The notes beneath the pieces were generated by a model. That model did no database searches, had not been told where the DNA came from, and worked only from the letters and a program-made list of their open reading frames with translations. Positions 24,746 to 25,737 of a stretch of 64,000 bases of DNA are shown here, piece after piece. Numbering within the stretch: position 1 is the first letter of the stretch; each line of letters begins with the position of its first letter. The translations under genes were made by a program, and so were the position numbers. This stretch comes from Eledone cirrhosa (lineage: Eukaryota): assembly GCA_964016885.1 (NCBI GenBank), contig OZ024754.1:18724001-18788000 (forward strand), given 5' to 3'.

Positions 24746-24959
24746 CTGACTGGCCATATGGAGCCTTTTTTGTATTGTGTATTCCATGCCTTTCTTTACC
24801 TTGTTTCTTAACAGTTGAAAGTTTTCTTTAACTATAGAGTTTCTTTTTTTGTATTGTTTTTTTCATGTACCTTTTTCATACCTTTGCCTTGATCCCAATT
24901 TCTTGCGGGGTCGCTACAATTACCTTGGGGTTATTCGCCTCTCGTCTGGAGGATAGTAT

Positions 24960-25175
24960 TGTAGCGACACCTAGGGTAAAATAAAAAAGAGAATTAATTA
25001 GAGTTACTTCCCGTAGACATAATAAATAGACGAGACTTGTGTTTCTCACTCTCTTATTCGCTGCTGGCCTCGTTCTAACGAGCAGCTCTCTATATCGTCT
25101 TTCTTATTGAATTAGTGGTTGGTTACCAGCGGTATCTTTCGGAGAAGATTAAACCAATAAACGAATTCGCTAAAC
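24960..25175 (+). mobile_element. Gypsy LTR preceded by 3' UTR/PPT (about 24750-24959) and followed by PBS
   Basis: Inverted duplicate of 23481-23875; followed directly by TGGTGACCCCGAC. Confidence 0.8.
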
Positions 25176-25243
25176 TGGTGACCCCGACGTAATGTGAACA
25201 CGTAGCCTTCTGATCTGTAGTCAGAAGCGCTACCGTTGCGCCA
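25176..25243 (-). tRNA. Reverse-transcribed tRNA-Trp copy (positions about 8-76 including CCA) fused to the LTR end; pseudogene
   Basis: Reverse complement TGGCGCAACGGTAGCGCtTCTGACTaCAGATCAGAAGGCTaCGTGTTCAcATtACGTCGGGGTCACCA matches metazoan tRNA-Trp(CCA) as recalled. Confidence 0.88.
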
Positions 25244-25737
25244 GAGCCAGTGGACTCTTCGACCGGTTAATTCGCTACAATGGGTTTATAGTAGATTAGA
25301 GAAAATCGCAATCAGTAAAACAGTAATGGAATGAAAAATAAAAGCATTTTTTTGATAGTTAAAGCCTTAAGATGCCCCCTCCTTACGCTATACACTTCAA
25401 TCACATCGAAACTTATTTAATAACTTTAAATTTTAAACACTTTTTATTCAGATGTACGTACCGCGATAAGAAAATAGATATGTTCGAACAAAAAATCCGC
25501 GATGTAGCGGGGATTACCGTGATAAGGAATTAGATACGTTCCAAAGAAAAATCCGCGATGTAGCGGGACCGCGAAAAGTGAGCCGCGATATAGCGGGGGA
25601 TTACTGTATATATATATTAGATAGTGAAATAGTGCCTCCGTGTATTTTTGACTAAATAAATTAGCCTAATATTTGGAGTTATAAAAACCCATGTATTCAT
25701 ACACTATGATTATATAGCTTCAAATTGAATGGAAATT

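Follow-up and report, generated by a model that had tools for sequence, protein, structure and literature searches.

Why is the long terminal repeat (LTR) of a Gypsy retrotransposon in the genome of Eledone cirrhosa followed by most of a transfer RNA? We analyzed a stretch of 64,000 nucleotides (nt) of contig OZ024754.1 (assembly GCA_964016885.1, positions 18,724,001 to 18,788,000; hereafter the window, numbered from its first letter). One spacer base after an LTR, the reverse complement of tRNA-Trp(CCA) occupies 25176-25243 and opens with TGG. The original prediction, made from the sequence alone, had taken this arrangement as a record of reverse transcriptase (RT) reading through its own modified primer. 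Our analysis supports that view, and primer read-through is very probably the origin of the tRNA copy. The tRNA copy belongs to the right arm of a 1,798-bp fold-back unit (23482-25279), which represents the whole insertion. This unit is probably a folded-back piece of a Gypsy element, whose self-primed minus strand was copied into the attached primer and inserted by integrase.

The tRNA copy was compared with the tRNA-Trp genes of the 3.0-Gb host assembly, which occur in tandem. Against a natural gene (L002), exactly five differences were present over positions 76-8, namely C61T (25191), A58C (25194), G49A (25203), C34A (25218) and G26T (25226), and the predicted list was thereby recovered in full. 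The comparison set consisted of 62 tRNA-Trp gene matches, 7 of them reverse-strand artefacts. None of the 62 carries T26, A34, A49, a base other than A at position 58, T61 or an encoded CCA, and T26 or A34 was found in 0 of 55 intact tRNA-Trp gene 5' halves genome-wide. Because no gene examined has the CCA end or the changes of the copy, a mature tRNA, and not a gene, was the template. A gene combining T26/C58 with CCA, which the prediction had named as a competing source, is likewise missing from the 62 matches. An isodecoder as source of the five changes was rejected, as the changes are absent from the genes examined. More than 40 tRNA-Trp genes form one tandem array (G000 C4:353394853-353486314).

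The features of a functional tRNA gene are lacking at the copy: the anticodon is changed, the acceptor stem is incomplete, CCA is encoded and ARAGORN called no tRNA gene at this site. The sole gathering-level Rfam match across the window is RF00005 at 25179-25248 on the minus strand (39.4 bits, gathering threshold 29). With a mature CCA end in register with the primer binding site (PBS) and an extent beyond position 58, the copy has the form of an over-extended plus strand. The predicted 68 nt of complementarity were confirmed, and the predicted end at position 8 holds only within positions 11-8, because 25240-25244 also fit the start of the next internal piece; this range takes in the base preceding G9. 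Reading 25244-25248 as tRNA positions 1-5 was rejected, since 0 of 55 genes begin in this way, and these bases were therefore left as junction filler, even though Rfam does align the stretch, with a 2-nt gap.

Sequencing of tRNA by mim-tRNAseq gives 1-methylguanosine at position 9 (m1G9), N2,N2-dimethylguanosine at 26 (m2,2G26), m1G37 and 1-methyladenosine at 58 (m1A58) for fly and human tRNA-Trp-CCA, with misreads at 26 that are mainly A (54-67%) and next most commonly T (26-35%), and misreads at 58 that are mostly T, with C at about 7% (PMC8062790). The predicted match between mismatches and such profiles held for A58C and G26T and failed for C34A, G49A and C61T, which lie off the listed sites; two of five mismatches on four sites corresponds to p = 0.025. 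Five mismatches in 68 nt compare with about 0.6 expected from the divergence of the two arms of the unit (P = 0.0004). Agreement with the fly and human sites is weak at the window locus alone, which is suggestive of a modification signature; the signature becomes convincing only from the genome-wide series described below.

The parent family was examined next to the insert. In a near-complete copy (L229, 92% identical to the insert), RVT_1, RT_RNaseH and Integrase_H2C2 follow one another in the RT-RNaseH-integrase order of Ty3/Gypsy elements, and an rve fragment is present in the window. A tRNA-Trp PBS is present in the family, and 4-bp duplications flank solo LTRs (L032, L036, L038, L039, L043, L052, L054 and L055). 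The U5 ends read AAA in 23 of 27 motif matches and ACA in 1 of 27. The Gag CHCC motif is present in L229; L155-L159, five loci that are partial or carry deletions, did not reveal it. A tRNA-Trp PBS, 4-bp duplications, LTR ends of the type TGT...AAA or TGT...ATA, a Gag CHCC motif and the order RT-RNaseH-integrase are the features given for the CsRn1 clade (PMC2582038), and the Eledone family shares its PBS, duplication, termini, Gag motif and domain order. The family thus appears to be CsRn1-like Gypsy, an assignment by clade features and not by a tree including named members. The accessible part of that account describes neither a long tRNA extension nor a fold-back copy such as the Eledone insert (PMC2582038), although other CsRn1 elements may have long PBSs.

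Nine LTR-PBS junctions were available for the LTR group of the window. A normal PBS of 18 nt had been predicted and was found in two of them (L093, L095), whereas four (L091, L092, L094, L110) have 12 nt. The remaining three are long and differ from one another in length and in the sequence that follows. The 68-nt copy is therefore not the leader of the family, and the situation that the original prediction had set against itself, in which all intact members share an extended leader, does not apply, as the intact-type PBS is 12 or 18 nt. In a further long copy, L146 (G000 C2:139378313), a window-family LTR precedes the complete tRNA-Trp, which extends to position 1. This copy is older, with eight scattered mismatches, one gap and a correct A58; the 10 kb fetched around it showed no further element sequence, and a duplication was not seen.

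These junctions bear on the idea that a parent with a long tRNA-complementary leader passed the tRNA copy on, or that this copy is a LINE (long interspersed element)-made retropseudogene or degraded gene that happens to lie beside an LTR. Fixed extensions of 32 or 39-40 nt do occur in other families of this genome. At the window, however, the tRNA sits behind an LTR of the 3' type, preceded by a polypurine tract (PPT), and the short and mutually different junctions of the LTR group do not provide such a parent. A retropseudogene is contradicted by the exact PBS register, the CCA end, the missing poly(A) and the lack of a duplication around the tRNA alone. The 3' CCA is kept, the 5' end is lost and the duplication bounds the entire 1.8-kb unit, whereas tailless retropseudogenes are 3'-truncated (PMC5322556). 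We regard this origin as very improbable and as largely refuted already.

The order of 3' untranslated region (3'UTR), PPT and LTR upstream of the tRNA copy was found as predicted. Self-comparison of the window showed in addition that 24749-25175 recurs inverted at 23875-23481. The unit and its host, a DNA element resembling a miniature inverted-repeat transposable element (MITE), contain the following features.

23226-25606, no strand assigned: host MITE-like DNA element with TA flanks; inverted repeats 23215-23248 and 25583-25617 (91%), 374 candidate copies.
23478-23481, plus strand: left target-site duplication ATGG, recognized against empty MITE copies.
23482-23661, minus strand: inverted LTR of the left arm, lacking 35 bp internally; on the left, the insertion ends with the U5 end (...CTAAA) of this LTR.
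23662-23875, minus strand: inverted PPT and 3'UTR of the left arm; the partner site of the fold junction is formed by 8 nt at 23868-23875.
23876-24756, minus strand: unpaired loop, made up of the 3' portion of pol with core and tail of the integrase; Pfam rve, E = 3.9e-12; 40 scored family matches at 86-93%.
24749-24756, plus strand: fold junction with 8-nt microhomology ACTGGCCA, present on both sides in other family copies.
24749-24959, plus strand: right-arm 3'UTR and PPT-like purine tract (24948-24956).
24960-25174, plus strand: right-arm LTR (TGT...AAA).
25176-25243, minus strand: mature tRNA-Trp(CCA) copy that begins at the CCA end, reaches position 8-11 and contains the five differences.
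25246-25266, plus strand: 21-nt piece equal to 23908-23928 beside the fold site, a likely template hop; kept in 14 family copies.
25267-25279, plus strand: rebuilt terminus ...TCGCTACA, matching the inverted U3 start (8/8 nt) or a re-copied U5 end (10/11 nt).
25280-25283, plus strand: right target-site duplication ATGG.

The host element may be Tigger/pogo-like. Uninterrupted copies of this MITE rejoin both flanks of the insertion in register and thereby reveal the 4-bp duplication, ATGG on each side. Empty copies have a single 4-mer at the site, mostly AAGG (one base off) and once ATGG. With a U5 end on the left, ...TCGCTACA on the right and a duplication of the length usual for the family, the insertion is likely of the integrase type.

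Of the 391 bases that align between the arms, 384 are identical; in addition, the left LTR has its deletion of 35 bp, and there are small gaps. Two variants are common to both arms and rare elsewhere (24954, in 0 of 17 other copies; 25163, in 0 of 29), from which it follows that both arms came from one parent. The loop between them consists of minus-strand pol sequence, 880 nt long, and includes the integrase core. In intact copies, an 8-nt stretch of the integrase sequence, read in antisense, also occurs in the 3'UTR read in sense, and the window sequence switches from the former to the latter exactly there. In a predicted folding of left arm and loop, the 3' end remained unpaired. The 21 nt after the tRNA copy are followed by a 13-nt end closing in TCGCTACA, and these last 34 nt call for at least two short template hops. 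An inverted U3 start would explain the terminal CA, since matches to the U5 motif hardly ever end in ACA (1/27). A re-copied U5 end has a precedent in four other copies (L118, L119, L149, L152), where the U5 end is repeated (8-24 nt) behind the tRNA copy and before the flank. Either one supplies integrase with a second end.

The inverted arm, the fold junction and the 4-bp duplication give the mechanism. The top strand runs from U5 to pol, turns at the 8-nt match and then continues into its own start and the tRNA, which points to a self-primed minus strand with the primer still attached. Minus-strand synthesis from the tRNA would have proceeded through U5-R, U3, PPT, 3'UTR and about 880 nt of pol, after which its 3' end may have paired back at 23868-23875 and been extended on its own strand. 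In this course RT would have passed m1A58 (misread as C), G37 and m2,2G26 (misread as T) and stalled at or near m1G9. Short template hops may then have appended the 21-nt internal piece together with an end of the LTR type, and filling in of the second strand and joining of both ends by integrase would have created the 4-bp duplication. The predicted status of the PPT-LTR-tRNA order as minus-strand cDNA with its primer attached is thus supported; the original prediction had overlooked that a second arm is present in inverted order, as well as the junction of the fold and the duplication.

The arms could also have come from two molecules, if a plus strand that had started in pol, or jumped there, had copied a co-packaged minus-strand cDNA together with its tRNA and the pieces had been joined in inverted orientation. 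At five of the seven sites where the arms differ, the right arm has the derived base, which at two of the five recurs in other copies (5 and 6), and the 35-bp deletion is confined to the left LTR, as separate molecules would have it; the right end needs extra hops under any model. The rare variants common to both arms speak for one parent, however, and the order of loop, stem and tRNA with its 8-nt junction arises from a single snap-back without any added step, so that we consider a two-molecule origin improbable. Inverted repeats are also a familiar artefact of long reads, and a chimeric fold-back read could mimic the unit; in addition, one public run and no RNA run was listed for the sequence, and among the matches listed from that run no read or contig bridged the junctions and only other family or MITE copies were present. 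Seven substitutions and a 35-bp deletion between the arms, a 4-bp duplication bounding the unit and MITE flanks that rejoin in register are not expected from such a read, and an assembly artefact is extremely improbable. A snap-back of one minus strand is preferred, and the window copy is dead DNA for which a function is unlikely.

The window copy belongs to a class that recurs across the Eledone cirrhosa genome and whose members arise when RT runs past the stop in the primer. CCA-tailed copies reaching past position 58 occur at 261 places in the assembly, of which 100 were listed and 30 fetched, most of the latter belonging to two amplified families. An exact match to both ends of a near-whole CCA-tailed copy was found at only 2 places in the 3.0 Gb. 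CCA-tailed copies matching to about position 42 numbered 39, in 17 LTR-end groups (a count in which one hairpin arm was replaced by L146). After removal of seven (five of one family, one hairpin arm and one shared junction), 32 independent copies remained. Position A58 is changed in 9 of these 32 (C in four, T in three, G in two). Transversions occur in 7/32 at position 58 and in 0/64 at the other two free positions (Fisher p = 3e-4), and positions 37, 26 and 9 are mismatched in 3/18 cases against 2/199 at other unconstrained sites beyond the search pattern (p = 0.004).

The ends of the 32 copies fall at positions 44-41 (4 copies), 40-35 (20), 34-30 (none), 29-27 (7) and 8 (1), and the clusters at 40-35 and 29-27 lie near m1G37 and m2,2G26. 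Among 25 LTR-PBS junctions picked regardless of length, 5 stop exactly at position 59, one base short of 58, and 8 continue well beyond 58 (seven with at least 23 nt, and L104 with a gap). Errors and stops thus agree genome-wide with the fly and human sites. Target duplications were sought for seven other LTR-tRNA-U5 copies and found for one (L149); the LTR starts could not be fixed in the rest. In a further copy, L148 (1453-1661), two inverted arms of LTR end and tRNA form a hairpin that turns in the anticodon arm, with A58T in both. G57 was present in 22 of 39 copies and in 12 of 62 gene matches, so that the primer pool does not mirror the number of gene copies.

Several observations weigh against reading these changes and ends as marks of modified bases. 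A58 was read correctly in 23 of the 32 independent copies, compared with 87% misincorporation in fly data; many primers may thus have been under-modified. C makes up four of the nine misreads at 58, although it is minor (7%) with TGIRT (thermostable group II intron RT). G49>A recurs in 5/32 independent copies (7/39 of all), although neither a modification known for this position nor a gene with the same base matches it. Decay by CpG or other sequence context was rejected as its cause, the context rate being only 7/450 (1.6%). The search behind the 39 copies allowed one mismatch outside the free positions, a limit that lowers the background mismatch rate. The contrast in ends (27/130 at risk versus 0/58) is descriptive only, as the windows were chosen after the data had been seen. 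The modification sites compared are those of fly and human tRNA-Trp-CCA, from which those of Eledone may differ, and human Trp-CCA shows low error at G9 (PMC7293042).

Such observations leave room for the view that read-through was real, with the mismatches due to later mutation or general RT error and the 40-35 ends due to 3' tRNA halves acting as primers. Cleavage in the anticodon loop gives tRNA ends near 35-37 and would end copies there as well. The older whole-tRNA copy L146 combines scattered mismatches with a correct A58, and at the window three of the five mismatches lie off the listed sites and the single-locus probability is modest (p = 0.025). The excess of transversions at 58 and the end cluster at 29-27, both spread across unrelated LTR groups, remain unexplained in this way. 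As a full account we therefore think it unlikely, and it can apply to single bases at the window without affecting the genome-wide pattern. Copying of a modified primer, which we prefer, was also compared with known systems.

In tRNA sequencing, errors and stops occur likewise at 58, 37, 26 and 9 of tRNA-Trp-CCA (PMC8062790, PMC4787781), whereas the Eledone marks arose in vivo through the RT of a retrotransposon, became fixed in the DNA of the germ line, differ in their spectrum at 58 and include an extra recurrent change at 49. In HIV-1 (human immunodeficiency virus type 1) and murine leukaemia virus (MLV), RT making the plus-strand strong-stop copies the primer from the CCA end and stops one base before m1A58; over-extended cDNA is said to be unable to complete synthesis or to integrate, and whether m1A58 stops plus-strand synthesis has been called unresolved for decades (PMC8599865). 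The normal stop of these viruses corresponds to that in 5 of the 25 Eledone junctions. Unlike viral over-extension products, the window copy is chromosomal, has a 4-bp duplication and reaches positions 8-11, and extensions are heritable in other families (PMC8599865). Tailless tRNA retropseudogenes are also genomic reverse copies of processed tRNA; they are LINE-made, 3'-truncated and without a tie to LTRs, whereas the Eledone copies keep CCA, lose the 5' end and lie at the PBS (PMC5322556).

Primer tRNA beside an LTR end is found in other systems as well. Retroviral circle junctions can contain tRNA sequence, Ty1 cDNA is captured at double-strand breaks, and a strong-stop-DNA model has been put forward for the origin of tRNA-derived short interspersed elements (SINEs). 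These systems likewise keep the primer tRNA next to the LTR end, but they comprise individual products, either cloned or induced, and a hypothesis, whereas the Eledone copies form a natural series over many families with integrase-type ends.

Extensions have become heritable in other Eledone families. A young non-coding LTR family of 2.1 kb (L195, L197 and L198, at G000 C1:2168300, C1:236624460 and C2:250659800) has LTR pairs that are 99.7-100% identical and 4-bp duplications. In its leader, 32 nt complementary to tRNA-Trp are followed by a short repeat resembling U5 and by a second PBS. Of 92 matches, 86 have T and 6 have C at position 58, and the A of the gene occurs in none, so that this non-autonomous family inherited an A58 misread. 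Ty1 and Ty3 are said to inherit the PBS strictly (PMC7472051), and such inheritance would account for the fixation of a misread. A full-length gag-pol family of about 5.9 kb (L203-L208) has a tRNA-complementary leader of 39-40 nt ending at 38-37, with A at position 58 in three of six copies and T in three. On the LTR tree of these six copies A58T needs at least two changes and is linked to a change at 47, while the internal tree disagrees; recombination of two haplotypes fits as well as re-copying of position 58 in each cycle. Another gag-pol family (L064, L066, L069, L078, L080; L200-L202) has a fixed extension of about 30 nt and has kept A58.

Elsewhere in the window, a near-perfect AT-rich palindrome of 123 bp lies amid TA repeats (22817-22939), and long strand-skewed tandem arrays occupy 56536-64000 and 44094-45313 (a 21-24-bp AAC-rich unit; CCA triplets). 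The open frames of the arrays, of up to 1978 codons, gave no Pfam match. A GIY-YIG frame, which we take to be Penelope-like, lies at 20619-21830, and RT/DUF6451 fragments of other retroelements are present at 17792-18544, 33624-34205 and 38652-39305.

The components of this picture are already known; the integrated fold-back, the series of stops matching modified bases and the inherited misread appear to be new. In the literature searched, mostly outside subscription papers, no integrated, modification-marked primer copies and no families founded by them were reported. The Eledone copies provide in vivo germ-line evidence from retrotransposons for stops one base before position 58, for read-through in which 58 is misread and for additional stops close to 37 and 26. 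Overrun products, regarded as fatal, can be integrated and inherited, and in one young family the misread was fixed. On balance we favour a general interpretation in which CsRn1-type RTs often overrun m1A58, stall at m1G37, m2,2G26 or m1G9 and re-copy an LTR end, so that the product is integrated. Such products may have founded families with a lengthened PBS, one of them with the A58 misread fixed, and the genome would then be a datable fossil tRNA-sequencing library of germ-line primer modification and isodecoder use, as well as a natural route to fusions of whole tRNA and LTR. The pattern can be searched for in any assembled genome, as a DNA-only readout of past tRNA modification, and it gives a test of the idea that tRNA-LTR fusions seed tRNA-derived repeats.
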